A stretch of 36,917 nt of DNA from an archaeon (GTDB lineage: Archaea > Thermoplasmatota > E2 > UBA202 > JdFR-43), in contig JAJRYN010000097.1 of the NCBI GenBank assembly GCA_024275755.1, forward strand, positions 1 through 36,917, in the 5' to 3' direction. The notes beneath the pieces are model-generated. The model worked only from the letters and a program-made list of their open reading frames with translations. It ran no database searches and was not told the DNA's origin. Position 1 is the stretch's first letter; every line of letters begins with the position of its first letter. The position numbers and the translations under genes are program-made. Shown here piece by piece: positions 7,115-35,924 of this stretch.

Positions 7115-7138
7115 GAACCTCTATTATATTTGTATATT

Positions 7139-10100
7139 ATGATGTTCCTTATTATTGATGATGAACCTGATGATAGAAAACTAGCCATAAGGTATTTAAA
7201 AAAGGAATTTCCTGATGCAGAATTTATTGAAATTTTTACCCAAAAACAATTTTATGATGCGCTTGAGGAAAAAAATTTTGATTTTGTTATTACTGATTAT
7301 CAGTTACACTGGGCAAATGGTATAAAAATTTTGAAGGAAGTAAAGAAAAGAAATCCTTTTCTGCCAGTTATAATGCTCACTGGCACAGGGACAGAAGAAA
7401 TTGCTGTGGAAGCATTAAAAGCTGGCTTAGATGATTATGTCATAAAGACTCCGGAACATTTCATGAAGTTGCCAGCAGCAGTAAAAGTTGCAATAGAAAA
7501 AGCGAAAATAAATCAACAGGAAAAAATGCTTGCCTCAATTGTGGAAAATGCAAAGGAGGCGGTTATAAGTGTGGACGAAAACGGAAACATAATATATGCT
7601 AACAAAGCAATCGAAGAAATTTTTGGATGGAAAAAGGAAGAAATTATAGGTAAGCCAGCATCGATTTTTGCCATCGATAAAAAAGAGCAGGAAGAACAAC
7701 TTGACGAAGCAATAAAGAAGGGAGGAGGAAAATTTGAGACGGTAAGGAAAGATAAGCATGGGAATGAAATCCCTGTTTTACTCACCATCGTTCCATTTAG
7801 GGATGAAAAAGGTAACCTACTTTTTTCGTCTGAAATAATGAGGGACATTCGAGAATTAAAGGAATATGAAAAAAGAGTAGAACATTTAAATGAGGTTTTA
7901 AGGGCCATAAGAAACGTAAATCAACTTATCACAAAGGAGAAAGGAGTTGATAGATTATTACAGGAAACCTGTAAAACTTTATTTAAAATAAGAGGATATG
8001 AGGCCACATGCATTTCACATAGAGATAACATATATATAGCAGGAAACAAAAAAGATTATGAGGAATTGCTGAAATATATTAAAGAAAAGGAAATAGAAGA
8101 TGAAATAGAAAGAGAAGGTAAAAAATTACTATATCAATTTAAAAATAAATATCTGCTTGCTCTACCCCTAATAAAAAATGGGGTTCAAGGAATTCTATAT
8201 GTTTTGCGTCCAAAAAAATTTGACGAAGAAGAAATCCGTCTCTTAAAAGAAGTTGGTCAAGATATTGCTTTTGCAATTCACTCGATTGAGTTGGAAAAAG
8301 AATTAAGGGAAGAAAGAGAGATGGTAAATGCAATTTTATCGGCTTCTCCAGTTGGAATTGGCTTTTCAATTAACCGCGCTATTGGATGGGCTAATGAAGC
8401 AATGTATAAAATGGTTGGTTATACACCGGAGGAAACTCTTGGAAAAAGTACTAGAATACTGTATGAAAGTGACGAAGAATATGAAAGAGTTGGTAGAGAA
8501 ATAGAAAAGGCATTTAAAAAAGGGAGGATAGCGGAAATAGAGACAAAATGGAAGAGAAAGGACGGAAGTGTTTTTGATTGTTATCTGCGCATATGCCCGA
8601 TAAACCCAGAAAAACCTGAGGAAGGAATCGTGGTTGTAGCAATGGACATAACAGAAAGAAAAAGACTTGAAAAGGAATTAAAAGAAAGCGAGGAAAGATT
8701 TAGACAATTTTTCGAGAATGCACCTGAATATTGTTACATGGTCTCAACCGATGGTAAAATACTCGATGTAAATAAAAGTGCGTTAAAAGCGCTTGGCTAT
8801 AAAAAAGAAGAACTTGTTGGAAAATCTTTATTTGTAATTTATTCACCTTCCTCACGGGAAAAAGCCAAAAAATTGTTCATGAAATGGAAGAAAACAGGAA
8901 GATTGAGAAATGAAGAATTAAAAATAATAACTAAAGATGGGAAAGAGAGAACAGTTTTACTGAGTGCAGATGCGGTGAGAGATGAAAAAGGAAATATTAT
9001 CCATTCTATCTCTATCCAGAGAGACATCACTGAATTGAAAGAGATGGAAGATGCCTTGAGGGAGAGTGAGGAAAAATACCGCACTCTTGCGGACAACGCT
9101 CCAGCGGGTGTTTTTATTGTTTACAATAGGGAAGTAATATATCTAAACAAAAAGGCGGAAGAAATGTTAAGAAGAGAGGAGGATGCTAAACATTTATATG
9201 TCATGTGGAAAAAGGATGGAAAACTGCCAATTGATGCTTTTTTTAACTTATGGAAAAAGGAAAAAAGAGAGAAAATAATGAGTGTCTTCGAAAAAGGCTT
9301 GAAAGGAGGAAAATTGAACACTGCCGAATTAAAAACTTCTGGTAATAGGCATCTTCTATTCTACATAACAGGTATAAAATACAAAGGTGAGGATGCACTG
9401 CTAGGCATTGTCCAAGATATTACAGAGTTAAGAAAAACAGAGGAAAAATTAAGAGAAAGCGAAGAGAAATTTAGGAGCCTAGTTGAAAATGCCGATGATG
9501 CAATTTATATTATTGCCTCTGAAGGATTCGAATATATAAATCCAGCATTTGAAAAACTTACTGGTTACAGTAGGAAAGAGATATTGAGTAAAGATTTCAA
9601 TTTCTGGAATTTGATACATCCAGAAGATATAGAACTTATAAGAAAAAGAAGGAAGGCAAGAATTAAGGGCGAAAAGATAGCTGGGAGATATGAATTTAGA
9701 ATAGTAACAAAAGACGGAAAAATAAAAAATGTAGAATCTTCAACAGTTCCTTTAGAAAAAGGAAGAACCCTTGGGATCATGAGAGACATTACCGAAAGGA
9801 AAAAAGCTGAAGAAATGATAAGAAAATTATCTGATTTGCACTATGTTATAGGCATGAGTATAAACAGGAGTAGCACAATCAAAGAATTGTGTGAAAATAT
9901 ACTGAAGCATATAAGAGAAATAATTGAAATTGATCATACAAATATATTCATTTATGAGGAAGAAAATAACATTTTAAAGCCAATTGCCCACTATGGCTAT
10001 CCTGAAGATTTTGCAAAGAGAGTGATGAAAAGTTATATGGTGGATGAAAAGCAACCATGGGAAGCAGTTAAATCGTTTTTAGAGAAAAAAGAGAGATATG

Positions 10101-10537
10101 TAAAGGATTTGAAGAAGCACAAGCCATTGTCCTTTAACTGGGACTTATACAGAAAATATGATGCTACTGAACTCTATACACTTCCTCTCATTACAAAGAA
10201 TAGGGTATATGGCATATTACAGGTTTTGAATACTTCCAGTAATCCGTTGACGGAGGATAAAAGAAAATTACTCAAAAGCATAGCAGAAGAAATTGCAGCA
10301 GGAATTGCAAAAATAAAGGCAGAGGAAGAAACAAGAAGGGCATTGGAGCAAGAAAGAGAGTTTAAGTTGAGAGCAGCCCACTATTTCTTCAATCCAATAG
10401 CCATTGCAAAAGGATATCTCGAATTGATACTGGAGGAAGAAGGCGAAAATGAAAAAATATTAAAAGCTATTGAGGCTATAAATAGAGTAGAAAAGGTAGT
10501 TAAAAATGTTACACAAAGGGGTGAGATAGTTGAATAA
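7139..10537 (+). CDS. Multi-sensor signalling protein: REC, ~5 PAS and 2 GAF-like segments, C-terminal DHp-like His module, no HATPase_c
   Basis: REC residues: IIDDEPDD, VITDYQL, MLTGTG, YVIKTP. There are five recurring PAS-end linkers (DITERKRLEKELKESEERFRQF, DITELKEMEDALRESEEKYRTL, DITELRKTEEKLRESEEKFRSL, DITERKKAEEMIRKL, DIRELKEYEKRVEHL). The ORF ends AAHYFFNPIAIAKGYLELIL..., a HisKA-like H-box, with no N/G1/G2 ATPase boxes. The ORF is open from TTG 7130; ATG 7139 fits the TATA spacing. Confidence 0.85.
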   Translation: MMFLIIDDEPDDRKLAIRYLKKEFPDAEFIEIFTQKQFYDALEEKNFDFVITDYQLHWANGIKILKEVKKRNPFLPVIMLTGTGTEEIAVEALKAGLDDYVIKTPEHFMKLPAAVKVAIEKAKINQQEKMLASIVENAKEAVISVDENGNIIYANKAIEEIFGWKKEEIIGKPASIFAIDKKEQEEQLDEAIKKGGGKFETVRKDKHGNEIPVLLTIVPFRDEKGNLLFSSEIMRDIRELKEYEKRVEHLNEVLRAIRNVNQLITKEKGVDRLLQETCKTLFKIRGYEATCISHRDNIYIAGNKKDYEELLKYIKEKEIEDEIEREGKKLLYQFKNKYLLALPLIKNGVQGILYVLRPKKFDEEEIRLLKEVGQDIAFAIHSIELEKELREEREMVNAILSASPVGIGFSINRAIGWANEAMYKMVGYTPEETLGKSTRILYESDEEYERVGREIEKAFKKGRIAEIETKWKRKDGSVFDCYLRICPINPEKPEEGIVVVAMDITERKRLEKELKESEERFRQFFENAPEYCYMVSTDGKILDVNKSALKALGYKKEELVGKSLFVIYSPSSREKAKKLFMKWKKTGRLRNEELKIITKDGKERTVLLSADAVRDEKGNIIHSISIQRDITELKEMEDALRESEEKYRTLADNAPAGVFIVYNREVIYLNKKAEEMLRREEDAKHLYVMWKKDGKLPIDAFFNLWKKEKREKIMSVFEKGLKGGKLNTAELKTSGNRHLLFYITGIKYKGEDALLGIVQDITELRKTEEKLRESEEKFRSLVENADDAIYIIASEGFEYINPAFEKLTGYSRKEILSKDFNFWNLIHPEDIELIRKRRKARIKGEKIAGRYEFRIVTKDGKIKNVESSTVPLEKGRTLGIMRDITERKKAEEMIRKLSDLHYVIGMSINRSSTIKELCENILKHIREIIEIDHTNIFIYEEENNILKPIAHYGYPEDFAKRVMKSYMVDEKQPWEAVKSFLEKKERYVKDLKKHKPLSFNWDLYRKYDATELYTLPLITKNRVYGILQVLNTSSNPLTEDKRKLLKSIAEEIAAGIAKIKAEEETRRALEQEREFKLRAAHYFFNPIAIAKGYLELILEEEGENEKILKAIEAINRVEKVVKNVTQRGEIVE

Positions 10538-14030: not shown

Positions 14031-14684
14031 CTAAAATAGTTTGCTCTGTTTCATTTCATTTTCGATATTTTTTATTGTTTTCCAGCTCTTTCTTGTATGA
14101 GGTGGCAAATCATTAAATTTTTTTATCCACTCTTTAATGAATGTGATGGTTCTTTCATCACTTGGATATCCACTTCCAAGAGGTAATCCAAGCTTTGTCT
14201 CCAGTTCTTCAGCAATCTTTTTGATTCTTTCGTCTCTTTCAACTTTGGCAATTATGGATGCTGCCGAAACAACGGCATATTTGTCATCTGCACCATGCTC
14301 ACAAATTATCTGGCAGTCATGTTTAATTAATTCCTGTATCGTTTTTTTGAATTCTTCCTCATTATTGCTTGCCGCATCTATGTAATAAATGGATGCTTCT
14401 CTTTTATTTGCGAGTTTGGCAAAAATATATGCTTCAAGCTGATTCATCGTCATTGTTTTGCGCAAATTGTCTATATCGCTTGCATCCACAACAACATATT
14501 CATGATAAAAATTCTTCTTAATATATTCTGCAAGTTTTTCCCTCCTTTGCTTTATCAATTTTTTTGAATCCCTCACCTTTGCTTCAAGCAACTTCCATTC
14601 CTCTTTTTTATCAATCCATACAGCTGCCACAACCATTGGTCCAATTACAGGACCGCGCCCTGCCTCATCTATCCCACATATCAT
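14031..14684 (-). CDS. rnhB: Ribonuclease HII
   Basis: MICGIDEAGRGPVIGPMVVAAV (catalytic DEAGRG), YIDAASN, SAASIIAKVERD, LGSGYPSD. Confidence 0.92.
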   Translation of the reverse strand: MICGIDEAGRGPVIGPMVVAAVWIDKKEEWKLLEAKVRDSKKLIKQRREKLAEYIKKNFYHEYVVVDASDIDNLRKTMTMNQLEAYIFAKLANKREASIYYIDAASNNEEEFKKTIQELIKHDCQIICEHGADDKYAVVSAASIIAKVERDERIKKIAEELETKLGLPLGSGYPSDERTITFIKEWIKKFNDLPPHTRKSWKTIKNIENEMKQSKLF

Positions 14685-15814
14685 TTTATCACAATCTCTC
14701 CATATTTTCCTCCGCCACCCGGCAGAATTTCTATTCTTCCTTCTCTGAATGCTTCTATTGCATCTGCGATGGCAGATGGTGCAACTTTTCTTATTTTTTT
14801 AATATCAACATCAAGTAATATTTCTATCTCATTGCCTATCTGAGTTAATTCCTTCCATCTTCTGATAACAATGCTTGCTTTGCTATCTGTTCCCAAAGCT
14901 TCGCCAATTATCTCTGCCAGTGGAATTAAATGAAGATATTTTGGTCTACTCTCAGGATGCACAGCATGTTGATAGGAAGCAAGTTCATCCACTCTATCTT
15001 TAACGCCCTTTTTTATTATCCCGTTGCAGTGGCACCTCCATCTCATTTTTTCTGCCTCTTCTTTTTTATACTGACGATAGCATGAAGTGCATGCTGTTCT
15101 GTTGTACTTTCCTTTCTCTGGAGGAAAACCCACGTTTAACGCAATGCCATTATTTAAGATTGCCTTCCTTATTTCATCCCATGTTATCTCATTTAGCTTT
15201 ATTCTATTGAACTCTCTTCCAAGGCGATGGGGCGAATAAGAGTGGGCATCAGAATTTGTTAAAAAAGGTATGTCATGCAGCTCTTTTATTCTATCTGCAT
15301 AATCGCTGTCTGCACTCAAGCCAAGTTCAATGAAATCTGGCTTCTTGCCATAATAATCAAGCACGGAATCAAAATAGGCGTACAAGGAGGTCCATGGGGT
15401 AAAGGCATGAGCTGGTCCAATTAAAGCATTCGCCTCTTTTGCCATCTGTAAAATTTCCGCTCCATCCAGCATTATTTTGGGGCGACCATCCTCATTTATA
15501 TTGGACGAATATTTTTTAACCCTCTCCTTAAAATCGTCGGCAGCATAAAAATCAGGAAATAAAAGCAAATGATGTACCCTGTTTTTGTCCTCAACTTCCG
15601 CACTTAAAACAAAATGTATCCCATCCGCTTCTATGACATCACCTGTGGCATATTTTTTAATTTCTCTCTGCCATGCTGGGTGTAAACAATCACCAGTTCC
15701 CACAACATGCAACCCTTTTTTCTTGGCACCATCTGCTATTCTTTTTAAATCGATTTTATCTGATGTTCCCCCTGAAAAAGGAGAATGAATGTGAAAGTCA
15801 GCGTTAACGAGCAT
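14681..15814 (-). CDS. endoQ: Endonuclease Q-like PHP-domain nuclease with Zn-ribbon
   Basis: ADFHIHSPFS, VGTGDCLHPAW, VEDKNRVHHLLLFP, GPAHAFTPWTSLY, LGLSADSDYAD, NSDAHSYSPHRLGREFNR, C..C...WRCHCNG, GIIKKGVKDRVDEL and PGGGGKYGEI are colinear with Pyrococcus EndoQ as I remember it. The stop overlaps the rnhB ATG by 4 nt. Confidence 0.8.
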   Translation of the reverse strand: MLVNADFHIHSPFSGGTSDKIDLKRIADGAKKKGLHVVGTGDCLHPAWQREIKKYATGDVIEADGIHFVLSAEVEDKNRVHHLLLFPDFYAADDFKERVKKYSSNINEDGRPKIMLDGAEILQMAKEANALIGPAHAFTPWTSLYAYFDSVLDYYGKKPDFIELGLSADSDYADRIKELHDIPFLTNSDAHSYSPHRLGREFNRIKLNEITWDEIRKAILNNGIALNVGFPPEKGKYNRTACTSCYRQYKKEEAEKMRWRCHCNGIIKKGVKDRVDELASYQHAVHPESRPKYLHLIPLAEIIGEALGTDSKASIVIRRWKELTQIGNEIEILLDVDIKKIRKVAPSAIADAIEAFREGRIEILPGGGGKYGEIVIK

Positions 15815-15853
15815 AATGAAAAAATTTTATATTATAAAAAATGTTGGGGGATT

Positions 15854-16918
15854 ATGAAAGCCAGGAAATTCGGTTTATTGGTGGTGATGCTCCTGCCTCT
15901 TGTGGGAGCAACAAATTTTGAGATAAGTATAAACGATAAGCAAGGAGATGTATCGAATCCGGATGTGGATATAGTGAAGGCATGGACGACTGTGGAAGGA
16001 AGCTATTTAGTATTTCACGTAAAGGTTGCAGGAAAGATAAATGAAGCATATAGCTACACCTTTACAGCTTATACAGGCGGTGTGAATAAGGCAGGAGTAA
16101 TCTTTCAGAGTGGAACAGCATATTATAGTGGAGATTCTTCGGGAGGAATAGCAGAATACAATGTAGATGGAGATACACTCAGCATAAAGGTTCCATATGG
16201 CGTATTTTCCTCATGGGACGATTTCAGTTTCTCAGTAATAGCGAATGATAATGCAGGCACAATCGATTATGCAATTGCTAGCGATATGGGAGGAGATAGC
16301 GGAGACGAAGGAGATACTGGAGGCCATGGCGATACAGATCCTGCTAAAGAAACACCAACTGATACAAGCATAAGCGTAAAGATAACCAATGTTGAATACA
16401 AATTCGAGAAGGTGGATAATGGACAAAAATGGTATGTGAAAGTGCTCATTGAAGGTACAACAAGTGGTGTGGATCATGTTTCACTCTGCTATGTAATCTA
16501 TTACAAGGATGGCACATACGATGTTACGGAATGGATGAAAGGGCCATTTGAAATACAGCCAGGAAGTTTCTTTGGCAGTGAAATAATCAAATTTATATTT
16601 AATTCTACAGAAGGAAACTGGAATAAATGGAAATTTGAATTAGAGGCAAAATATCCTGTAACTGAACCAGATTATCAGTGGGTTGAAAAAGAAAAGGAAG
16701 TAGATAGAGTAGTCATCTACGCCAGAGCCTTCAAAGATGCAGCTGAAACAAAATGGAATCAGGCAAAATATGAAACAAAACCAACATTTACGTCAAATGG
16801 AGCAGAATATACAATAAGTGGAGAAGAAACAGAGGGAAAGAAAGGTATATCTGGTTTTGAAATAGCTTTTGTCTTTGCTGCTATAGTGGCTGCTCTGTTT
16901 ATAATAAGGAGAAAATAA
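15854..16918 (+). CDS. Secreted surface protein with acidic linker and C-terminal SGF+TM+RRK anchor (PGF-CTERM-like)
   Basis: Signal peptide MKARKFGLLVVMLLPLVGA; linker DMGGDSGDEGDTGGHGDTDPAKETPTDTS; C-terminus GISGFEIAFVFAAIVAALFIIRRK. The ORF-track start (15785) would overlap endoQ, so ATG 15854 is preferred. Confidence 0.6.
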   Translation: MKARKFGLLVVMLLPLVGATNFEISINDKQGDVSNPDVDIVKAWTTVEGSYLVFHVKVAGKINEAYSYTFTAYTGGVNKAGVIFQSGTAYYSGDSSGGIAEYNVDGDTLSIKVPYGVFSSWDDFSFSVIANDNAGTIDYAIASDMGGDSGDEGDTGGHGDTDPAKETPTDTSISVKITNVEYKFEKVDNGQKWYVKVLIEGTTSGVDHVSLCYVIYYKDGTYDVTEWMKGPFEIQPGSFFGSEIIKFIFNSTEGNWNKWKFELEAKYPVTEPDYQWVEKEKEVDRVVIYARAFKDAAETKWNQAKYETKPTFTSNGAEYTISGEETEGKKGISGFEIAFVFAAIVAALFIIRRK

Positions 16919-28819: not shown

Positions 28820-28992
28820 CTAACCTTCAATGCATATTTTCCTGGCATTTTTATTTTCATTTTTTCTGCAATCTGTGAATTTTTGGGGTCGATAACTATA
28901 AGATACCCCTGCCATCTTTCTGATGTCGGCTCTCCACAATACGGACAGATGCTCTTATTTGTAAGTACGTGGCATTTTCTGCAGGCCTTCAT
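28816..28992 (-). CDS. spt4: Transcription elongation factor Spt4 / RNAP subunit E'' (hand-found)
   Basis: MKACRKCHVLTNKSICPYCGEPTSERWQGYLIVIDPKNSQIAEKMKIKMPGKYALKVR has a Zn-ribbon plus W.G..iv.dP..S.iA signature. ATGA overlaps occur at both ends. Confidence 0.85.
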   Translation of the reverse strand: MKACRKCHVLTNKSICPYCGEPTSERWQGYLIVIDPKNSQIAEKMKIKMPGKYALKVR

Positions 28993-29552
28993 TTCTTCTC
29001 CTCCTTCTTCTCCTTATCCTTTTCCTTCCATTCTTCTTTTCCCAACCCAGGCTGGCGCATTGTCAAGCCTATCTTGCTTTCTCTTGGATTCATTTCATTT
29101 AATGATACAGTAACTATCCTCACCCTTATTTTATCTCCTACTTTGAGTGATTTTTTTGTTTCTTTGCCTTCCAATCTCTTGTTTTCCGTATCAATAACAA
29201 CCTTATCATCCATAATCTGGCTTTTATGAAGTAAGGCATCTAAAGGCCCAATATGGCAGAAGGCACCAAAATCAACTATATCACAAACAATAGCATCAAC
29301 AACCTCATGCATTTCTGGTTTGAAGGTCAATGCTTCAAATTCCACCTGCTGATATATTGCCCCATCTCCATGTAGAATATAGCCCTCTCCTATTCTTTTG
29401 ACATCTCTTGTGAGAACTATTAAGCCGTATTCTTTGTTCATTGTCCCCTCAAAAGTTTCCTTTACTATTTTTTCACTAACCTCGTCTAAATCTTCACCGA
29501 TATAAGCAGGAGGAATCCGTATTGTGTTTTCCATTTTAACTAGATAATACAT
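28989..29552 (-). CDS. rpoE: DNA-directed RNA polymerase subunit E' (Rpo7)
   Basis: MYYLVKMENTIRIPP......EGYILHGDGAIYQQVEFEALTFKPEMHEVVDAIV..VDFGAF, followed by the S1-like LKVGDKIRVRIV. Confidence 0.9.
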   Translation of the reverse strand: MYYLVKMENTIRIPPAYIGEDLDEVSEKIVKETFEGTMNKEYGLIVLTRDVKRIGEGYILHGDGAIYQQVEFEALTFKPEMHEVVDAIVCDIVDFGAFCHIGPLDALLHKSQIMDDKVVIDTENKRLEGKETKKSLKVGDKIRVRIVTVSLNEMNPRESKIGLTMRQPGLGKEEWKEKDKEKKEEKK

Positions 29553-29605: not shown

Positions 29606-30835
29606 TTAGGGCTTTAATTTTATGGTTTCTCTCACAAGCTTCTCTATTCTCCTCAAACTCTTTTCAATAGCTTGGAGTTGTTTTCTCTGTTCTTCTGATA
29701 ACTCGCCATACTTTTCTTCTCCAAGTAGATGGAGATACCCTTGGGCTATGGAAAGAGGATTGAGGAAAAGATGTGCAACTCTTTCTGAAAAGATCTTTCT
29801 CAACCCCTTTTCTTCTTCTTTGGAATGGAATGCAAGAATGCTGATTTTCCCACCTTCTCTCTCCATTCCTGTAAATCTTCCATAAAGTATATGATGTACA
29901 CCGTAGCCATCTACAAATTCAAATTCCACTTCCTCGCTTTCGCTCCCCATAAATATTCTTTCATTTGCCTCCTTTATTTTTTCTCTGTCTTTTGCAGCAA
30001 CAAATTCTGTGAATAATTTTCCTTTCATTTCTTCCATCTCATATCCAAAATTTGCTTTTATGTGCTCATTTGCACTTTTAACTCTCCCCTCTTCATCAAG
30101 TATGACAACATTTATAGGTATATTATGCAGGATTTTTCTTAATGGCAATAATTCCTCTTCCATAAGGGTAGACGGTAAAAATGGTATGCTGTCTATTTTC
30201 AATAACAGTTCTCTGCATCTTTTAATGCCTATTTCTGCAATGTTTATTTCTCTTTTAGCTTCGATAACTTTCTCTGCAAACTCTTTTCTGCTTATTTCCT
30301 TAAGCAACCTTTTCCCAGATAGCTCTACCAATTCCTTCCTCAATGTTATTATTTTTGTCTCCAGATCATTTATTCTTTTAATCAATGCTTCCTTCAATAG
30401 TAACACTTCCTCAACGTATTTTCTTACTTCCGGATATTTCGCTTCTATCGCTCTATATAACTCATCCTTGCTGGCCCCATGCAAAAGAGATTCATGCACA
30501 TCCGGCAATTTGGTTTTTGCCTCCAGTTCAGCCACAAGTTTCAATCCTTCTGAATACCATAATGGAGCGAAAATTAATCCTCTTCTGGTTTTTTCAAATG
30601 CGTCTGAAGGAAAATAAAATGTTTTACCCATCTCATCCTCAATTTCGTATCCTATTTCCTCCCCCAAACTATTTCTCACTATCTTCTTCACAACCCCTAC
30701 TCTTTCTCCTGTATCCTCAAAATAGACAGGTAAGCCAATAATTCTCCTCTCTTTCCGTCTAGATGCGTCTATCCAGAATCTTATTTTCCTTTTGATAGAT
30801 ATGAAGAATTTCCGGATTGTCCAATAGATGCTCAT
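29606..30835 (-). CDS. Cytoplasmic sensor-like protein: PRC-barrel-like N-terminus, coiled coil, PAS, C-terminal DHp-like His module (no HATPase_c)
   Basis: The PRC-like call for IIGLPVYFEDTGERVGVVKKIV...TFYFPSDAFEKTRRGLIFAP is tentative. PAS: INVVILDEEGRVKSANEHIKANFGYEMEEMKG. Ends VAHLFLNPLSIAQGYLHLL...LQAIEKSLRRIEKLV. ATGA overlap with the upstream peptidase gene. Confidence 0.7.
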   Translation of the reverse strand: MSIYWTIRKFFISIKRKIRFWIDASRRKERRIIGLPVYFEDTGERVGVVKKIVRNSLGEEIGYEIEDEMGKTFYFPSDAFEKTRRGLIFAPLWYSEGLKLVAELEAKTKLPDVHESLLHGASKDELYRAIEAKYPEVRKYVEEVLLLKEALIKRINDLETKIITLRKELVELSGKRLLKEISRKEFAEKVIEAKREINIAEIGIKRCRELLLKIDSIPFLPSTLMEEELLPLRKILHNIPINVVILDEEGRVKSANEHIKANFGYEMEEMKGKLFTEFVAAKDREKIKEANERIFMGSESEEVEFEFVDGYGVHHILYGRFTGMEREGGKISILAFHSKEEEKGLRKIFSERVAHLFLNPLSIAQGYLHLLGEEKYGELSEEQRKQLQAIEKSLRRIEKLVRETIKLKP

Positions 30836-32427
30836 ATGTCACACACCTCCAGCAAAGCAGCGGGATCGATTTTTTCCCTCACACGATGCAGTACTGCCAC
30901 AAACGCCATCATTGACATAAAGTTTACTGTGAAAAGAATAATAATCAAAATAAAAGATATGGAAAGATATTGCATGAAGAGGATAAATGCCCCATCCCCC
31001 AAAAAGAGCATCATTCGGGCTGCAAAAACAAGAGATAAGATGGATGAGGAAATTAAGGAGGCGAAAGCAAACTCGTTTTTAAATCTACAGCCTAAGTGAT
31101 ATAAGAGAATAGAAATAACCATGGAAGAAACAAATGCCGTTAGAAAGAGATTTCCTATTCCATCAAAAAGAAGTGGAATGAAAATGATGGTGATCAATGG
31201 GATAAAAATCGCCTTTTTGTTAATCGTGTCTACCCATAGTAGCATATTTCTAATCTTTTCTCCTGCTTTATTAATTTTGTTTTTTATCGCGGCAAAACCA
31301 CGATGTAAGAAAAGGAATCTTGGATAATGTCTCATTGTAACAGCAGGCATATACGCCGCTGTCAAATGGAACTTTTCTATAATTATTGAAGAAAATATGA
31401 GTAGCAGGAGTGTAATGAATGACATTATAAGCGATGAGAGTAACGAGGAAAATAGGACACACATCCTCGGATTTATATTATAGAAGTATTCAATAACTTT
31501 TTCTGGAAGCAGCATCCAGTAAGGAGACGAATAAACAAAAACCTTTCCTCTGATTTCTTTAGCATATCCTACCCCAATCTCTTTTCTTTCCCCACTTTTA
31601 ATAGCAAATATATTGCTATCCAGTGTTATATTCTTATTTCCTTCTGCAAAAACTATTCCCCTTACAGGAAGCAAGGAGGGATTGTACACTGGGATGCCAG
31701 CCACAACCCTGTTTTTATGTTCTTCAAGGGTAATGCTATCGTATGCAAAAAAAGATGTTAGCAGCAGAAAAGGAATAAAAAAGGAGAAAATGTATCCCAT
31801 CATCTTTTTGGCTGTTATTTTTTCAGGGCCAAAAATCAATTCATGCAGCTTTTCTTTCAAGCTTTTGCCATTTGGAAGCCATATTATAAGATACGCCATC
31901 AAAATGGTTAGGAAAAATATAAAGGGAAAAAATATTAGATAATGTATTGCTGGCTGCGGTTTGCCCCAGTTAATCGGAGTGGCCATTTTGTCGATAGCTT
32001 TTTGCAAATAAATCCAGAAATAGCCGACGAAAGGTATTTTCAATGGCTGGCTACCAATCATTATTGCTTTTCCATAAAGATTTCTTTCAGATACCATAGG
32101 CTCAGGTATATGTGGACCTGCCTGGTCTGTATAGTTGTTCGCATCTCCTTTTGTAATAAGTTTTCCATCTTTAATGTCGATGACTCTATGAATGATGAGA
32201 TTGCCATAAACACTTTTATAGACAACTATATCGCCTTCTTTAACATCATCGATTTTACATGGCATCCAGATTACAATGTCCCCCTCATGTAAACTCGGTT
32301 TCATTGAGGAAGAGGAAATAATATTCATTGGATAGGGCACTCCATTAAATATGGTGATAAACCTTGTTATTATAATGAGGAACACTGCAATGAAAGCAAT
32401 GTTTCCTATCACTTTTTTCATGTTCAT
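30832..32427 (-). CDS. SipW/Sec11-type (S26B) signal peptidase I fused to a ~380-aa polytopic membrane domain
   Basis: N-terminal TM, then ISSSSMKPSLHEGDIV (Ser box), GNLIIHRVI (His box) and ITKGDANNYTD (GDxN box). About 8 further hydrophobic helices and a ~90-aa soluble insert follow. ATGA overlaps at both ends. Confidence 0.8.
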   Translation of the reverse strand: MNMKKVIGNIAFIAVFLIIITRFITIFNGVPYPMNIISSSSMKPSLHEGDIVIWMPCKIDDVKEGDIVVYKSVYGNLIIHRVIDIKDGKLITKGDANNYTDQAGPHIPEPMVSERNLYGKAIMIGSQPLKIPFVGYFWIYLQKAIDKMATPINWGKPQPAIHYLIFFPFIFFLTILMAYLIIWLPNGKSLKEKLHELIFGPEKITAKKMMGYIFSFFIPFLLLTSFFAYDSITLEEHKNRVVAGIPVYNPSLLPVRGIVFAEGNKNITLDSNIFAIKSGERKEIGVGYAKEIRGKVFVYSSPYWMLLPEKVIEYFYNINPRMCVLFSSLLSSLIMSFITLLLLIFSSIIIEKFHLTAAYMPAVTMRHYPRFLFLHRGFAAIKNKINKAGEKIRNMLLWVDTINKKAIFIPLITIIFIPLLFDGIGNLFLTAFVSSMVISILLYHLGCRFKNEFAFASLISSSILSLVFAARMMLFLGDGAFILFMQYLSISFILIIILFTVNFMSMMAFVAVLHRVREKIDPAALLEVCDI

Positions 32428-33791
32428 TTTGTTATCACCTCCACCATAATATAGTCTGTATCAATTATGGAATAAATGGTCCACACCCATATTCTCCTTG
32501 TATAAGAGTTCTGCTCCACAAGCAAAATCAGTTTTCCATTACGAATATAATTTGATGAATTCAGTACATATGCTTCCAATGTATCCTCACTAGCTACACT
32601 GTTCATGACCAATGCATCATATTTGCTTGCGGTATAATTCCACAAAAATATGGTTGCGCCTGGCGTAAGTAAATGTCTTCCTCTTCCATTCCATAATATA
32701 TGCAATAGTGCAATTTCATCAGAGCTTTCATTCAAAGTGAGGACAAAGCGATGTGCCGCATAGAAACCTCTTGCTGCTATATCGGTTTGGAAGGTGCCAT
32801 CATCATAGAAAATATTCTGATATTGCAAGGAGGTAAATTCAACAGAGGGAGTGTCATTGGTGGAAGGTGGAAGTGCATCTACCTCCCATCTATATGCATA
32901 TCTATCTACTCCTGCATTTGTAGAGAAGTCGTATATACTAAGTATATCAGATATGCTTTCATTGGTGACGTATATGCCAGCTTCATCTGTTGCTATTCTG
33001 TAAAAGTTGCCTCCTGTCGAATAGTCATTTATACCCTTTAAATCGAAAAGTATTATTTTCCAGTTTCCGGACAGCATGCCACTTACAGCAAAAACATCCC
33101 ATGTATTGTTTGATGATGCAACAAATGTGCCATAAAAACTGCCAGAAGGGGAATATACCAATGCTGCAATATAATCTCCATCATATATTGCAAAACTGAA
33201 GTTGCCATCGGAAGGAATTTCGTATGTTTCATATGCAGAAAAACCTGCCCCTCTTCCAAGAATCATTGCATCATTACTCCCATAATAATTGCCGGGAGGA
33301 GAATATCCTGGATAAAGCGATGACTGACTTTCATTCATAAAAATTCTATCTGTTACAACTATTTCTAGCCCATAATAATTCCCATTGACATATCCCCAGG
33401 AATCTTCAATTATTTCTATTGTGTAATTGCCATGAGCGCTTGAAAAGTTAAAATAATTCCATGTATCAGAGGATGTTGCATAAGAATCGATAATAACACC
33501 TGTTGAATTATATACTCTTATTCTGAGTCCATCTCCATCATATATTCCTATGCTAACCTCGCTATTCAGCGCTGTGAAGTGGTAAGAATGAACTTCATTT
33601 ATCTTTCCCTCTCTAGCAATTGTAGCAGAAAAATCGCCTCTGAAACGCACAGCATATGTAATTGGAATGGAAAAAATATAATTGGTTCCCAACACTGCAT
33701 TTTCATTTGCAAAAAGACGGGATGAAAAAAAGCTACTACAAAATAATAAAATAAGAGAAAGGATGGCAATGGTTGCCAACTTTTTTTTCAT
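32424..33791 (-). CDS. Secreted protein with two duplicated beta-sandwich (PPC-like) modules and an uncharacterised C-terminal domain
   Basis: Signal peptide MKKKLATIAILSLILLFCSSFFS. Internal repeat aa ~67-146 vs ~187-267 (IGIYDGDGLRIRVYNSTG...ATSSDTWNYF...GNYTIEI vs FAIYDGDYIAALVYSPSG...ASSNNTWDVF...GNWKIIL). More than 10 N-x-S/T sequons. Confidence 0.65.
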   Translation of the reverse strand: MKKKLATIAILSLILLFCSSFFSSRLFANENAVLGTNYIFSIPITYAVRFRGDFSATIAREGKINEVHSYHFTALNSEVSIGIYDGDGLRIRVYNSTGVIIDSYATSSDTWNYFNFSSAHGNYTIEIIEDSWGYVNGNYYGLEIVVTDRIFMNESQSSLYPGYSPPGNYYGSNDAMILGRGAGFSAYETYEIPSDGNFSFAIYDGDYIAALVYSPSGSFYGTFVASSNNTWDVFAVSGMLSGNWKIILFDLKGINDYSTGGNFYRIATDEAGIYVTNESISDILSIYDFSTNAGVDRYAYRWEVDALPPSTNDTPSVEFTSLQYQNIFYDDGTFQTDIAARGFYAAHRFVLTLNESSDEIALLHILWNGRGRHLLTPGATIFLWNYTASKYDALVMNSVASEDTLEAYVLNSSNYIRNGKLILLVEQNSYTRRIWVWTIYSIIDTDYIMVEVITK

Positions 33792-33871
33792 GGTAGCGTC
33801 AGCAGCGCCGCTATAGCCGCCAGTATAATTGCAATGGCAAGCAGCAGCAGTATCTTCTTTCTAAGCCCCAT
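33788..33871 (-). CDS. 27-codon ORF encoding a single hydrophobic helix (MGLRKKILLLLAIAIILAAIAALLTLP)
   Basis: It exactly fills the only gap in the operon. Its ATG shares a base with the upstream TAA (TAATG) and its TGA overlaps the downstream ATG (ATGA). No homology evidence. Confidence 0.4.
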   Translation of the reverse strand: MGLRKKILLLLAIAIILAAIAALLTLP

Positions 33872-34524
33872 TACGTTTCTGCCTTAAACTGGAATTCTAT
33901 CGAGCCAGTATATGTTGTGCCTTTTGTTGCCCCACTTGTATCTATGGAAATCTGCACCCAGACAAAATCTGTTGAGCCATTTATTGCAGACGGTGTGCCA
34001 GCAGCATATCTGATATTATCATCTGTATCCCAAGGTGTGGAAGTTGTTTCCATTGTTGAATTATCCATATCTCCTGTATCAAGAATCCAGTAGCCCTGCG
34101 ATGCCGAGCCATCCCAGATTAAGAGCCTGGCGGTTGCGGCTTCGCCTGTTGCGTCAACAGTTGGATCGGAGTGGAGCCATATTCTTATGAAATTTGCTCC
34201 TGTTCCGCTCACCGATACACCTGTAATATTTACAGGGAAACCTTCTTCATTCACTATTGCAAATGCTGCAGTATATGTCTTATTCATTCCCTTAGGTATG
34301 TCTCCAAATTTGATGGTCATTGTCGCCGTATTATTATCCTCTATCCTTAACAGTCTTCGTCCATCTGTAGAATTATCCATTGCAACAAATCTTATGAACC
34401 CGTTGGATGGATGAACAACGCTGAATTCATAGCCTATTGTTATTCTCGCATACTGTGTTGCAACGGCTGCAGACAGCACTGCCACTGTTATTCCTATTAG
34501 CAATACCTTTTTTCTTACATCCAC
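33871..34524 (-). CDS. Secreted TasA/camelysin-like (tentative) beta-rich protein
   Basis: GGAGG lies 8 nt before GTG 34524 (ORF open to GTG 34542). Signal peptide VRKKVLLIGITVAVLSAAVATQYA. Six N-x-S/T sequons. The C-terminal strand GTTYTGSIEFQFKAET resembles the TasA end YQGNSIKLQFSFEATQ. It sits in an operon with a SipW-type peptidase. Confidence 0.55.
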   Translation of the reverse strand: MDVRKKVLLIGITVAVLSAAVATQYARITIGYEFSVVHPSNGFIRFVAMDNSTDGRRLLRIEDNNTATMTIKFGDIPKGMNKTYTAAFAIVNEEGFPVNITGVSVSGTGANFIRIWLHSDPTVDATGEAATARLLIWDGSASQGYWILDTGDMDNSTMETTSTPWDTDDNIRYAAGTPSAINGSTDFVWVQISIDTSGATKGTTYTGSIEFQFKAET

Positions 34525-34630
34525 ATTAATCCCCTCCAGCACCCATTCAAGGCGGAATATATAATATTTTTGAAATTTTTCGATGTTAGTAAAAACTTTT
34601 TTAATTTGGCTTAATTATTTTTTAAAGAAA

Positions 34631-34658: not shown

Positions 34659-35924
34659 ATGAACCGTTTATTAAATAGGCTAAAGGAAATATTTTACCTT
34701 CCCCCCGAAAAATGGAAGGAAGTGGATAAACTTATCTATGGACTGGATGACTATTATCTTTACGACTCGAAGAAAATTCAGGAAAGCAGATTTAAAGCAA
34801 TAAAGGAAGCTTTTTTGCACCACTACACAAATAATCTGTTTTATCACAAATATTGCAAGGAAAACAATGTTACTCCAGACGATATCAAAAGCGTTGACGA
34901 CTTCAACAAAATTCCTCTGATTCCGGACAAGTTCTTTAAAGATTATCCGGACGAAGATCCAAGAAAATTATATGAATGGCTCTATAAAATTTCCTCAGTT
35001 GATATAGGAACTTATGATTTCAATGGAAAGAAACTCCAGGACTTCCTAGTATGGGCTGAGAAAAAGCTAAATGGCATTGTTACTCATTCTTCTGGCACAA
35101 CAGGAAAATTCAGTTTTATGTTCAGAGATGAGGTAACAAGAAAGAGGATGTTTTATTCTGCAGATAAAATTTTGCTGTTTACAATATACCCCCCAGCTGA
35201 TGATGCCCATATAATATATCCTGGGCCCATAAAGACTCATTTAACTATGGGGAGATGGGTTGCAGAAGGAACAAGAATATTCGATGAAAATCATCGCCAT
35301 TTTCTGACAGAAAGGCCGCTCAGCATTGATATAATAAGGATAATGTCTGGACAGGTTAATGGAATGGGGGACAAATTGAAATTGATGGTGATAAAGAAGG
35401 CCATGCACAAAGGACAGCTCAAGCTATTGAAACTTTTAGAAGAAATGGATAAAAAAGGCAAGCAAATTTACATGATTACATTTCCCTTCCAGTTATATGA
35501 TTTGATGAAAATAATGGAGGAACAAGGTGTTTATCTAAACCTTGGAGAAAGCAATTCAGTTATAATAACAGGAGGTGGATGGAAAATACACGAAAACATA
35601 AAGATATCATCAGCAGAAATGGCGAAGAAGATAGAGGAATTTTTCGGTATAGAAACTAACAACTACAGAGATGTTTATGGAATGTCTGAGATGAATGGCT
35701 TGGCGTTAGATTGTGAAGCAAGATACAAGCATTTCCCTCCATGGATTCATCCAATAGTGCTTGACGAAAATTATGAACCTGTTTCATATGGTGAAGAAGG
35801 AAGATTTGCTTTTCTGGATCCGGCTGCCAATAGTTATCCAGGTTTCATAATCACTGGGGACAAGGTGAAACTTATGGAAGCATGTCCAGAATGTGGAAGA
35901 GAAGGCATCGTGATAAAGGGATAA
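34659..35924 (+). CDS. LuxE-like acyl-protein synthetase / adenylate-forming enzyme, terminated by TAA before its conserved C-terminal tail
   Basis: Colinear with Vibrio LuxE as recalled: AFLHHYTNNLFYHKYC, IPLIPDKFFK, THSSGTTGKFSF, VIITGGGWK, HFPPWIHPIVLDENYEPV, DPAANSYPGFIITGD. Confidence 0.8.
   Translation: MNRLLNRLKEIFYLPPEKWKEVDKLIYGLDDYYLYDSKKIQESRFKAIKEAFLHHYTNNLFYHKYCKENNVTPDDIKSVDDFNKIPLIPDKFFKDYPDEDPRKLYEWLYKISSVDIGTYDFNGKKLQDFLVWAEKKLNGIVTHSSGTTGKFSFMFRDEVTRKRMFYSADKILLFTIYPPADDAHIIYPGPIKTHLTMGRWVAEGTRIFDENHRHFLTERPLSIDIIRIMSGQVNGMGDKLKLMVIKKAMHKGQLKLLKLLEEMDKKGKQIYMITFPFQLYDLMKIMEEQGVYLNLGESNSVIITGGGWKIHENIKISSAEMAKKIEEFFGIETNNYRDVYGMSEMNGLALDCEARYKHFPPWIHPIVLDENYEPVSYGEEGRFAFLDPAANSYPGFIITGDKVKLMEACPECGREGIVIKG

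Follow-up and report, generated by a model that had tools for sequence, protein, structure and literature searches.

A Conserved Thermoplasmatota Operon with an Enlarged Signal Peptidase, Probably for a Glycosylated Surface Fibre or Adhesin

Five translationally coupled genes on the minus strand (29606-34524) of an archaeal DNA stretch of 36,917 nucleotides (the window) form a conserved operon whose product is probably a glycosylated surface fibre or adhesin, made with the help of an enlarged signal peptidase of its own. We put at about 0.55 the probability that it is the Thermoplasmatota version of the signal-peptidase-linked, donor-strand surface-filament loci (TasA/SipW of Bacillus, tafi of haloarchaea, and AbpX/AbpA of Thermoproteota), with an unusual set of partners. 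This reading draws on gene structure, conservation of gene order, the identity of the peptidase, a shared N-terminal motif, and fold class.

Operon Structure and Conservation

The initial annotation described five chained minus-strand ORFs, and its coordinates and junctions proved correct: ORF1 and ORF2 meet in TAATG, and ATGA forms the ORF2/ORF3, ORF3/ORF4, and ORF4/ORF5 junctions. The longest frame of ORF1 starts at GTG 34542; position 34524, also GTG and not ATG, is the likelier start because GGAGG precedes it by 8 nt and homologues start with MDVRKK or MDIRKK. The AT-rich TATA region and GGAGG site proposed for the operon are likewise present: the intergenic region upstream of ORF1 is 79% A+T and contains a putative TATA-like box, TATTATATAT (34557-34566, minus strand), and the GGAGG, a predicted ribosome-binding-like site, reads from 34537 to 34533. 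GGAGGTG precedes ORF4 and likewise ORF5.

The order ORF1, (ORF2), AF_1625_C protein, ORF4, ORF5 recurs in relatives, being kept in 16 of 20 loci, all from Thermoplasmatota MAGs, that have ORF1 identity of at least 43% and at least 5 kb downstream. Two other layouts join ORF1 and ORF4 (ORF1-ORF4-PRC protein and ORF1-AbrB-like-giant protein-ORF4). Across 87 loci, each ORF4 match has an ORF1 homologue upstream, in the same orientation; 31 of the 34 loci with distant ORF1 paralogues (33-43% identity) have no ORF4 nearby.

The Putative Major Subunit

ORF1 (33871-34524, minus strand; 217 aa from GTG 34524) encodes a putative major secreted subunit, an acidic, predicted N-glycosylated β-sandwich protein. 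Its basic and hydrophobic N-terminus, six N-x-S/T sequons, and Thr/Asn-rich character (27% T+S+N) were recognized at the outset and hold up; the mature pI is 4.5, and the C-terminal end is GTTYTGSIEFQFKAET. The signal peptide (34447-34524), MDVRKK plus a hydrophobic region, ends in the family-invariant ATQYA, with putative cleavage after AVA or after QYA. Residues 27-37 (RITIGYEFSVV; 34414-34446) are alternating-hydrophobic and constitute a candidate donor strand. The family, which no Pfam model covers, is confined to Thermoplasmatota; its members have a median of nine sequons, a pI of about 4.6, and no Cys. Several paralogues occur per genome, partly in tandem, as is usual for pilins.

An AlphaFold model of ORF1 (pLDDT 84 overall) is least confident at residues 27-37 (pLDDT about 48-62, versus >80 in the core). 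Its top Foldseek matches are donor-strand pilins: FimA (E 6e-4) and, as the best archaeal matches, Pyrobaculum AbpA (7UEG; E 1e-3), a comparison suggested by the initial annotation, and the Sulfolobus thread Saci_0406 (7PNB; E 1.3e-3), both with probability 0.97. The scores are weak (TM-scores 0.27-0.40, E-values only about 1e-3), and ORF1 differs from AbpA and Saci_0406 in that TM-scores reach only 0.33-0.40 and sequence similarity is absent. AbpA pili and Saci_0406 threads are glycosylated and assemble by donor-strand complementation. Profile searches of Pfam, NCBIfam, and PDB returned no known pilin family for ORF1, and hhalign against TasA, DUF1102, and AbpX gave probabilities of only 0.3%-11%.

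Assignment of ORF1 to the TasA/camelysin family, also proposed initially, failed every sequence test. It is very improbable that ORF1 is a genuine, highly divergent member (PF12389) and that the operon is directly orthologous to tapA-sipW-tasA. Between ORF1 and TasA, the best local hhalign matches are colinear and fall on hallmark segments of the TasA family (ORF1 residues 74-113 with TasA 52-87, the NLKPGD / N-x-G stretch; DFVWVQISI...IEFQFKAET with DFDQVQMEI...LQFSFEATQ), and the T-(Q)-Y-A motif of ORF1 is similar to G-T-[FWY]-A. However, all hhalign probabilities are below 1%; the C-terminal strand singled out as TasA-like does give the best local match to TasA, but an insignificant one (0.6%). 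The Peptidase_M73/TasA model (PF12389) finds no match in ORF1 and 84 other family members, yet readily detects TasA-like proteins of Haloferax, and TasA structures are missing among the top 50 Foldseek matches. ORF4 also scores only 39 bits against the SipW equivalog model (cut-off 190 bits).

A Shared N-Terminal Motif

ORF1 and the variable protein encoded after it both carry A-x-Q/E-Y-small as an N-terminal motif, with a Y-x-F-S-V strand behind it. When the 1825 ORFs of all loci were scanned for [AGST]x[QE][YFH]-x4-8-[YFS]x[FY][STGA][VI] in the first 70 residues, 73 matched; all 73 are ORF1-family proteins or products encoded just downstream of one, and no unrelated ORF matched, a test of specificity that is partly circular because the pattern was composed after the sequences were seen. 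ORF3-like N-termini score weakly with the HMM (E 0.3-3), and the motif of the ORF3 in this window, ANENA, is degenerate and does not fit the pattern. The motif is similar to the cleavage site and donor strand of TasA (GTWA before the cut, AFND after it) and of AbpX (LTYA before, QWSETLSLSATI after); hhalign aligns exactly this region of ORF1 with AbpX (E 0.0027, probability 11%).

A motif specific to the ORF1 family and downstream proteins would also suit an N-terminal sorting system, analogous to the C-terminal signal common to exosortase/archaeosortase substrates, in which each ORF1-family or large variable protein is a surface glycoprotein in its own right, either an adhesin or a component of the envelope, and ORF4 cuts their common signal, with no polymerization. 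The giant partners found in relatives (2180-4680 aa, with DUF2341, Gly_rich_2, and Laminin_G_3) are adhesin-like rather than pilin-like, many ORF1 paralogues are orphans, some with long C-terminal extensions, and the likeness of ORF1 to pilin structures is weak. Against this, a pure cleavage signal would make the conserved alternating-hydrophobic strand after the motif superfluous; every top fold match is a donor-strand pilin; the model has low confidence at the N-terminal strand, as in predictions of self-complemented pilins; and the nearest relatives of the ORF4 peptidase serve filament loci. We regard such a sorting system as somewhat unlikely.

An Enlarged Signal Peptidase

ORF4 residues 1-155 (31963-32427, minus strand) comprise TM1 and an extracellular S26 (archaeal/ER-type) signal peptidase domain of TafD type. 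The complete Ser/His S26B peptidase seen initially at the start of ORF4 is confirmed: when aligned to human SEC11A/C, SSSM, IIHRV, and KGDANNYTD coincide with its Ser, His, and Asp motifs, these motifs do not vary among 22 orthologues, and the protein passes NCBIfam TIGR02228 (81 bits versus a cut-off of 51.85; E 7e-23). The domain bears the TafD-type signatures TDQxG..EP and GKAIxIGxxPxxIP, and hhalign matches it (probability 99.2%, identity 32%) to a Halocatena signal peptidase whose gene sits between DUF1102 and DUF5305 genes, a TafD-type locus. Residues 156-531 (30832-31962, minus strand) are a family-specific extension consisting, in order, of TM2-TM3, a second extracellular domain of about 90 aa with invariant NP and YSSPxW, TM4, a basic cytoplasmic loop, and a bundle of 4-5 TM helices, with a conserved C-D-[IL] at the C-terminus. 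Searches with this membrane extension (roughly 375 residues) matched nothing.

ORF4 could instead serve the whole cell as its signal peptidase I, unusual in its membrane domain, co-transcribed incidentally with abundant secreted proteins and having no dedicated substrates. It scores above the cut-off of the generic equivalog model for archaeal signal peptidase I, and the window and the loci, a tiny portion of each genome, showed no second S26 gene. This is nonetheless quite unlikely: ORF4 always lies directly downstream of ORF1-family genes, in three layouts, the putative substrates have a private motif in common, and the domain has TafD-type signatures, not just generic ones.

Micro-Protein, Secreted Partner, and Cytoplasmic Protein

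ORF2 (33788-33871, minus strand) encodes a 27-aa single-pass membrane micro-protein, MGLRKK plus 19 hydrophobic residues. The initial proposal of a transmembrane peptide stands, its position and character being kept in 13 related loci, in none of which it is annotated.

ORF3 (32424-33791, minus strand), a secreted protein of 455 aa, is a putative tip, cap, or adhesin partner. It consists of a signal peptide, a degenerate ORF1-like N-terminal motif and strand, two duplicated β-sandwiches (mutual identity 27%, E 8e-6), and a C-terminal AF_1625_C domain (PF27237; residues 283-455, 32427-32945, minus strand), which is the conserved part of an otherwise variable second-gene product. The earlier description as a double β-sandwich captured the duplicated pair and missed this third conserved domain, for which no pilin-specific match was found. 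In the ORF3 model, mediocre in quality (pLDDT 68, alignment of five sequences), the N-terminal segment is disordered and three β-sandwich domains follow, for which the matches are CBM/CUB/collagen-binding-like.

ORF5 (29606-30835, minus strand) is invariably encoded directly after ORF4. Domain searches agree with the cytoplasmic PRC/PAS/DHp protein first proposed: its 409 aa contain a PRC-barrel, a coiled coil, PAS, and HisKA (DHp) with a conserved H-box His, and no HATPase_c was detected. The invariant pairing of ORF4 with a PRC-barrel protein, the retained phospho-acceptor His, and, in relatives, an adjoining receiver protein plus a histidine kinase and response-regulator pair could point to a transmembrane signalling device in which ORF4 is a regulated protease, its action on ORF1 or ORF3 is sensed or controlled by ORF5, and the secreted proteins have no structural part but act as ligands or sensors. 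That is hardly credible, since the ORF4 peptidase domain is a signal peptidase and not a site-1/site-2 protease, ORF1 is multi-copy and predicted to be glycosylated, the partner proteins are adhesin-like and highly variable, and tafi and AbpX loci commonly carry regulators as passengers.

Comparison with Known Surface-Filament Loci

Clusters for tafi (Tat-fimbriae) or taf-like structures occur in Haloarcula, Natrinema, Thermococcus, and Archaeoglobus (PMC11821415, PMC12337348). Cells from which tafD was deleted form no tafi, and their TafA stays unprocessed (PMC11821415). Like these clusters, the operon encodes one or more small secreted subunits, a tip-type protein that is larger and variable, a regulator, and a dedicated signal peptidase that has extra TM helices as well as a second extracellular domain, and whose peptidase domain is homologous to the TafD type; donor-strand assembly is proposed for both. 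In contrast to tafi, ORF1 is not TafA/TafE or DUF1102, the loci analysed lack DUF5305/TafG and DUF1102, the export signals are Sec rather than Tat, ORF4 has the additional helix bundle, the host phylum is Thermoplasmatota, and the micro-protein, AF_1625_C protein, and PRC-PAS-DHp protein are not found in taf loci.

AbpX loci of Pyrodictium abyssi and relatives (bioRxiv 10.64898/2026.01.04.697558) also pair an acidic subunit of about 160-200 aa with an adjoining TIGR02228 signal peptidase gene, whose product reportedly has about ten TM helices. Further likenesses are genes for tip and minor subunits, the occasional regulator, and a cleavage site (aromatic at -2, Ala at -1) before an amphipathic donor strand, the sole region that hhalign aligns. 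Significant overall sequence similarity is absent; the AbpX model is described with two Cys, whereas ORF1 lacks the pair, and the acidic residue conserved at mature position 4 of AbpX homologues is missing in ORF1 (I after QYA, A after AVA).

In B. subtilis tapA-sipW-tasA, as proposed here, a major subunit and a second protein with a common signal and N-terminal strand are processed by an ER-type peptidase of the operon, and the annotated gene order on the Haloferax plasmid pHG1 (TasA-family, 207 aa; TasA-family, 484 aa; signal peptidase I) matches the layout here. ORF1 departs from both in failing the PF12389 and TasA profile tests, and SipW lacks a polytopic extension such as that of ORF4. 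Near the ABP operon, no gene for a dedicated peptidase was identified (PMC9245690), and tafD/tafG homologues are missing from the subunit-gene clusters of P. calidifontis and S. acidocaldarius (PMC11821415).

Proposed Mechanism

We infer where cleavage occurs, that ORF1 polymerizes, and what ORF2, ORF3, the extension of ORF4, and ORF5 do. Sec would export ORF1 and ORF3, and the extracellular TafD-like S26 domain of ORF4 would cut both at the shared A-x-Q/E-Y-small motif, liberating an alternating-hydrophobic N-terminal strand (ITIGYEFSVV in ORF1). The acidic, heavily N-glycosylated β-sandwich of ORF1 would then polymerize by insertion of this strand into the next subunit. ORF3, with a strand of the ORF1 kind and no ORF1-like body, may cap or nucleate one end, as proposed for TapA, AbpB, and TafC, and, as an adhesin, may display its variable CBM/CUB-like domains. 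The polytopic extension of ORF4 together with ORF2 could form a membrane platform for the peptidase, on which ORF5 may dock or which it may couple to a phosphorelay.

The TasA/SipW-type module first proposed survives in its secreted small subunit, larger secreted partner, and own ER/archaeal-type signal peptidase, and not in the TasA membership of ORF1. Its partner set, initially thought undescribed, is partly familiar, as enlarged dedicated peptidases, tip proteins, and regulators are known (PMC11821415, PMC12337348, bioRxiv 10.64898/2026.01.04.697558); the literature searched contains no description of the micro-protein, the AF_1625_C partner, this specific polytopic extension, or the PRC-PAS-DHp protein. 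TasA/tafi-type systems have recently been described in other archaea and bacteria, and this operon, so far unannotated, is probably their Thermoplasmatota version.

Operon Organization and Genomic Context

Five genes on the minus strand encode a putative small secreted subunit (ORF1; 33871–34542, or from 34524, by ORF scan), a 27-aa micro-protein (ORF2; 33788–33871), a 455-aa secreted partner (ORF3; 32424–33791), a 531-aa peptidase with a polytopic extension (ORF4; 30832–32427), and a 409-aa PRC-barrel protein (ORF5; 29606–30835). All five lie where the initial annotation placed them, and they are translationally coupled, with one TAATG junction followed by three ATGA overlaps. The GTG codon at 34524, the start already proposed for ORF1, is the likely one, given a GGAGG site 8 nt 5′ of it and the MDVRKK opening of homologues. 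A TATTATATAT box is present at 34566–34557, within a spacer of 79% A+T, and GGAGGTG is also found 5′ of ORF4 and ORF5.

The operon is flanked by housekeeping genes and, beyond ORF1, by a divergent ligase gene. On the low-coordinate side of ORF5, translations at 28989–29552 and below resemble subunit E′ of RNA polymerase, Spt4, and the ribosomal proteins S24e and S27ae. The divergent gene (34659–35924, plus strand), facing away from the operon promoter region, encodes a LuxE-like acyl-protein synthetase/PaaK-like ligase; it was considered as a member of the module and left out because upstream neighbours vary among the relatives examined. Elsewhere in the window, two 377-aa ORFs (14681–15814, minus strand; 15785–16918, plus strand), which overlap divergently at their 5′ ends, are without Pfam matches at E ≤ 1e-5. 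The nearest genome match is the MAG of Thermoplasmatales archaeon JdFR-43 (97% identity).

Conservation among Relatives

Gene order was compared at loci around ORF1 homologues with at least 5 kb of downstream sequence, grouped by ORF1 identity to the window; ORF5 was counted among loci that have ORF4, and proteins with AF_1625_C (the C-terminal domain of ORF3) were counted as well. At identities of at least 43% (20 loci), ORF4 is found on the same strand in 16, ORF5 in 16, and AF_1625_C in 14, so that ORF4 and ORF5 are kept together in 16 of 20, as the initial annotation would have predicted. At 33%–43% identity (34 loci), the corresponding numbers are three, two, and zero. Among the distant loci that lack ORF4, several terminate within giant ORFs; others are true orphans beside housekeeping genes. 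Two MAGs each carry one ORF1 paralogue linked to ORF4 and another that is an orphan, a pattern to be expected of scattered subunit genes that share one processing locus. Recurrent ORFs of 318–328, 368–371, and 584 aa located 3′ of distant ORF1 paralogues were considered as a second partner set and rejected; they are housekeeping genes, and the recurrent downstream ORFs were identified as epimerase, DeoC, FeoB, TFIIB, FtsJ, and MMPL.

Cysteine-peptidase genes lie just 5′ of ORF1 homologues in several relatives (loci L001, 1–1241; L002, 4627–7854; L004, 417–2294; L006, 2514–5213). They belong to Peptidase_C25 (gingipain-like), C1, and C11, some with β-helix domains, and none is present in the window.

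A Signal Peptidase with a Membrane Extension

The N-terminal 155 residues of ORF4 constitute an archaeal/ER-type signal peptidase I of family S26B (TIGR02228, 81.2 bits against a cut-off of 51.85). The Ser/His/Asp motifs SSSM, HRV, and GDAN align with their counterparts in human SEC11A/C and do not vary among 22 orthologues, which bears out the Ser/His S26B assignment made in the initial annotation. The SipW model NF046067 scores only 39.1 bits against an equivalog cut-off of 190. The nearest relatives among annotated plasmids are haloarchaeal peptidases within loci resembling taf, the locus for haloarchaeal fimbriae (tafi). In Halocatena, DUF1102 and DUF5305 genes flank the peptidase gene on either side, and in Haloferax larsenii a DUF5305 gene lies a few kilobases from it. 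An hhalign comparison of the ORF4 family with the Halocatena peptidase gives a probability of 99.2% (E 3e-19) over ORF4 residues 7–153, and the two have signatures in common outside the catalytic boxes (TDQxG..EP and GKAIxIGxxPxxIP). By these comparisons, the peptidase domain can be classed with TafD, the peptidase type of taf-like clusters. Deletion of TafD abolishes tafi and leaves TafA unprocessed (PMC11821415).

Hydropathy places in ORF4, in order, a first transmembrane (TM) helix, the peptidase, TM2 and TM3 with a basic loop between them, an ectodomain of about 90 residues, TM4, a second basic loop, and four to five more TM helices. The extension past residue 155 is conserved end to end in the family (34% identity to a distant orthologue), with invariant NP, YSSPxW, and C-terminal C-D-[IL] motifs. 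It has no Pfam match, and tblastn matches of ORF4 in plasmid genomes are confined to the peptidase domain. The TM helices of TafD itself number four, and its second extracellular domain is Ig-like (PMC11821415); no homology was detected between this type of domain and the second ectodomain of ORF4. For peptidases linked to AbpX, another archaeal donor-strand filament protein, ten TM helices are reported, along with occasional fusion of DUF5305 to peptidases of this kind (10.64898/2026.01.04.697558). Signal peptidases that are enlarged and dedicated to filaments are thus already known, as TafD and the AbpX-linked enzymes show; the AbpX preprint contains no description of the particular extension of ORF4 (10.64898/2026.01.04.697558). 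DUF5305 gave no match at E ≤ 1 in 18 ORF4 orthologues, and no such gene is present in the operon.

PRC-Barrel Partners and a Conserved Micro-Protein

ORF5 consists of a PRC-barrel, a coiled coil, a PAS domain, and a HisKA domain (E 5e-10), which agrees with its earlier description as a cytoplasmic PRC/PAS/DHp sensor. The H-box (A/S)H(L/E)F(L/F)NPL, with its phospho-acceptor histidine, is conserved in 16 orthologues. No HATPase_c match was found in Pfam or NCBIfam, so ORF5 is not a complete kinase; the missing ATPase domain is a family trait, because every orthologue ends a few residues past the DHp domain. In a second layout, in which ORF4 directly follows ORF1, a shorter PRC-barrel gene comes after ORF4, followed by a giant gene encoding PAS domains and coiled coils. 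Because a PRC-barrel gene follows ORF4 in either layout, the invariant pair is ORF4 and a cytoplasmic PRC-barrel protein. The giant protein has 1628 aa in L040 (12754–17637), where it combines PAS domains with long coiled coils and is apparently cytoplasmic; counterpart genes are cut by the locus end in L038 (from about 13545) and L078 (from about 4183).

In some relatives, the PRC-barrel protein is followed by a receiver protein, and a histidine kinase is encoded upstream together with a response regulator. Signalling genes abound in the window, which encodes a HisKA_7TM-PAS kinase (913–2583, minus strand), a solute-binding-domain kinase (5476–7053, plus strand), and a 1135-aa protein with a receiver, four PAS domains, and a GAF domain that lacks an output domain (7130–10537, plus strand); any of these signalling proteins could feed the kinase-less ORF5.

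ORF2 is a genuine conserved gene, predicted to encode a single-pass membrane micro-protein. At 13 loci (L006, L009–L011, L013, L015–L017, L019, L020, L023, L032, and L053), where ORF1 identity is 42%–70%, similar ORFs of 25–28 residues separate the homologues of ORF1 and ORF3; they have the form M-x-x-K-K-K, a hydrophobic stretch of about 19 residues, and Q-[IM]-[KRG]. The gene is missing from the gene calls at L006 and L007, the two loci with gene calls that were inspected. One subclade lacks ORF2 and has a spacer of only 65 nt.

The Small Secreted Protein and Known Filament Subunits

The mature ORF1 protein is acidic (pI 4.5), carries six sequons, and ends in GSIEFQFKAET. The family is small, with 124 clusters in a set of 5.8 billion proteins and, at E ≤ 1e-3, only 167 matching cluster representatives in a set of 1.84 billion; its named members are without exception from Thermoplasmatota-type MAGs, several genomes having two to four paralogues, some in tandem. 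Conserved features include an N-terminal hydrophobic segment closing in a nearly invariant ATQY(A), a TAAFAIVNEE core, WLH, and a C-terminus of the form DFVWVQISI...G.I.F.F.A.T. In some members, long extensions follow the conserved domain (P0115, 385 aa; P0127; P0130; P0133–P0135; P0138, 939 aa), that of P0115 containing a repeat of about 40 residues (…YIYAGG…TVRQYLKSDLSYIG…).

ORF1 was initially annotated as TasA-like, partly on the basis of its C-terminal strand. Neither the protein nor the profiles and members of its family match Pfam, NCBIfam, or PDB sequences. PF12389 (Peptidase_M73) finds no match at E ≤ 1 in ORF1 or 84 other family members, in a library that does detect the TasA-family proteins of Haloferax and Bacillus. 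Two ORF1-family alignments compared by hhalign with a thin TasA-family alignment (seven sequences from Bacillus and Haloferax plasmid genes, that of TasA being verified) give probabilities of 0.3%–0.6%, and comparison of the family with TasA alone gives 0.1%–0.6%. No TasA chain (5OF1/8AUR) is among the top 50 Foldseek matches in the PDB for the ORF1 model. Because the PF12389, hhalign, and Foldseek tests all fail, strict membership in the TasA family is not supported. The local hhalign matches, although statistically insignificant, are colinear: ORF1 residues 74–113 pair with TasA 52–87 (NLKPGD and an N-x-G stretch), and a second match falls on the very C-terminal strand pair that had been singled out. 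Deep homology is possible but unproven. DUF1102, a subunit domain of the haloarchaeal fimbriae, likewise has no Pfam match in the family (hhalign against a DUF1102 protein, 1.7% probability), the top local match being the same N-x-G region; comparison with the AF_1625_C domain is also insignificant.

The AlphaFold2 model of a single ORF1 chain (42-sequence alignment, pLDDT 84, pTM 0.77) has a signal helix, a linker and a self-complemented first strand of low confidence (pLDDT 48–62), and a confident all-β core. Its best PDB matches are donor-strand pilins, namely FimA variants (6e-4), Pyrobaculum AbpA (7UEG; 9.7e-4, probability 0.97), and the Sulfolobus thread (7PNB; 1.3e-3, probability 0.97), but with low TM-scores of 0.27–0.40 overall. 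The same structural comparison bears on the main rival to a filament subunit, a sorting system for surface glycoproteins that do not polymerise: the low TM-scores speak for it, the pilin matches against it, and we regard it as less likely than a filament. A type IV pilin was also considered. There is no [KR][GA] site ahead of the hydrophobic region, and so a class III signal is absent; neither the operon nor any of the 87 loci examined contains a gene for an ATPase, a platform protein, or a prepilin peptidase. This reading was rejected because both the signal and an ATPase/platform gene are missing.

Secreted Partners and a Common N-Terminal Motif

Residues 283–455 of ORF3 are assigned to AF_1625_C (PF27237.1) by precomputed Pfam annotation of the protein and its homologues, and residues 282–455 are 44% identical to that domain in two relatives. 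Homologue searches yielded four proteins for ORF3 and one for its C-terminal domain, and the structural model was therefore built on five sequences. This model (pLDDT 68) has a signal helix, a disordered segment (19–54), and three β-sandwich domains, of which the first two are an internal duplication; the double β-sandwich of the initial annotation corresponds to this pair, but AF_1625_C adds a third domain. Foldseek returned only generic β-sandwiches (CBM, CUB, collagen-binding, and toxin domains), which fit a binding or adhesin role but do not point to it specifically.

Proteins in the second position vary widely among relatives, from a minimal 221 aa (signal, strand, and AF_1625_C) to 770–820 aa with DUF2341. 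A third layout, found in distant relatives (L002, 8854–15572; L004, 8862–16729; also L021, L029, L033, and L035), combines ORF1 with a 59-aa AbrB/MazE-like gene and, after it, the gene for a giant secreted protein; among these giants, one has 2180 aa (DUF2341, Gly_rich_2, and Laminin_G_3) and another 4680 aa, and they carry the N-terminal TQY...GYxFSV motif of ORF1. In L002, an ORF4-type peptidase gene lies 3′ of the giant gene.

Comparison of this N-terminal motif gave the most informative result on ORF3 and its relatives. ORF1 begins with a basic and hydrophobic signal, an invariant ATQYA, and an alternating strand (I-x-I-x-Y-x-F-x-V), and would thus have the putative cleavable signal and amphipathic N-terminal strand of a donor-strand pilin. 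The family consensus after the hydrophobic segment is A-T-Q-Y-A-x3-[VI]-x-[YF]-x-[FY]-x-[VI], and proteins encoded downstream of ORF1 have, for example, LYANQYS....YGYSI, LHATEYA....YSFSI, and LLYGTQYM..KPGYSFSV. A pattern for the first 70 residues, derived from the same sequences on which its specificity was counted, matches 73 of 1825 ORFs in all fetched loci, every one of them an ORF1-family member or the product of the gene directly downstream of one. With an HMM of the ORF1 segment, ORF3-like proteins score weakly and the giant proteins better (E 8e-4); in ORF3 of the window the motif is degenerate (FANENA...NYIFSI) and does not match the pattern.

The motif resembles known cleavage/donor-strand junctions of TasA (GTWA|AFND), its Haloferax relatives (GTFA|LFND), and AbpX (LTYA|QWSETLSLSATI). 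In an hhalign comparison of ORF1 with AbpX (E 0.0027, probability 11%), the match is local and confined to the cleavage site and donor strand. Two putative cleavage positions in ORF1, after AVA or after QYA, are compatible with a small residue at −1.

Comparison with Known Systems and Proposed Function

Chaperone- and usher-free donor-strand filaments (TasA, AbpA, threads, tafi, AbpX, and cannulae) form a class involved in biofilms and adhesion across domains that has been emerging since 2022, and known systems of this kind include tapA-sipW-tasA in Bacillus and tafi (2025). Archaeal TasA homologues were noted in 2022 (PMC9245690), and AbpX filaments in a January 2026 preprint (10.64898/2026.01.04.697558). 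For donor-strand filaments in Thermoplasmatota, literature searches turned up only a passing mention of PF12389 homologues.

The operon's layout is closely paralleled on Haloferax gibbonsii plasmid pHG1 (L088, 5911–10783), where a TasA-family protein of 207 aa is followed by another of 484 aa and a signal peptidase I. In the annotated pHG1 operon, the 484-aa protein has a very acidic tail, a 617-aa hypothetical protein is encoded after the peptidase, and genes for a 7TM histidine kinase and an HTH protein are located upstream. Taf-like clusters have a peptidase of the same TafD type, but the operon in the window lacks DUF5305 (TafG) and subunits of the DUF1102/TafA/TafE type.

We favour, with a probability of roughly 0.55, a filament module of the taf/AbpX/TasA kind with ORF1 as the polymerising subunit. 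The enlarged signal peptidase ORF4, which is likely to be dedicated to cargo of the ORF1 and ORF3 types, would process the major subunit and the variable partner through their common cleavage/donor-strand motif; ORF1 would then polymerise by strand donation, and the variable partner, bearing binding domains, would cap or nucleate the fibre. The operon structure, the synteny, the peptidase identity with its TafD relationship, the common motif, and the predicted fold class rest on direct observation; cleavage, polymerisation, and what ORF2, the ORF4 extension, and ORF5 would do are inferred. A more far-reaching, unlikely variant is an unrecognised machine for assembling chaperone-free donor-strand fibres, in which the peptidase-fused polytopic platform and ORF2 would anchor the growing fibre, perhaps held by the second extracellular domain of ORF4, and the obligatory PRC-barrel/PAS/DHp partner would gate the platform from the cytoplasm. 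Fibre production would in that case be controlled post-translationally from inside the cell, beyond transcription alone.

The partner set was first described as unrecognised. The kind of system is known, but several components appear novel: the family of ORF1 subunits, the class of AF_1625_C partners that have the common N-terminal motif, the micro-protein, the polytopic extension, and the obligatory PRC-barrel partner. For the filament module that we favour, the locus offers testable handles in a private motif of subunit and partner, the unexplained membrane domain to which the peptidase is fused, an overlooked conserved micro-protein, and the PRC-barrel protein that is its invariant cytoplasmic companion. 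Should the fibre prove real, the motif would provide a simple means of listing every cargo in metagenomes, including giant adhesins of 2000–4700 residues. With a subunit family that at present carries no annotation, the locus would extend the donor-strand class to Thermoplasmatota, uncultured archaea that include subsurface and hydrothermal lineages.
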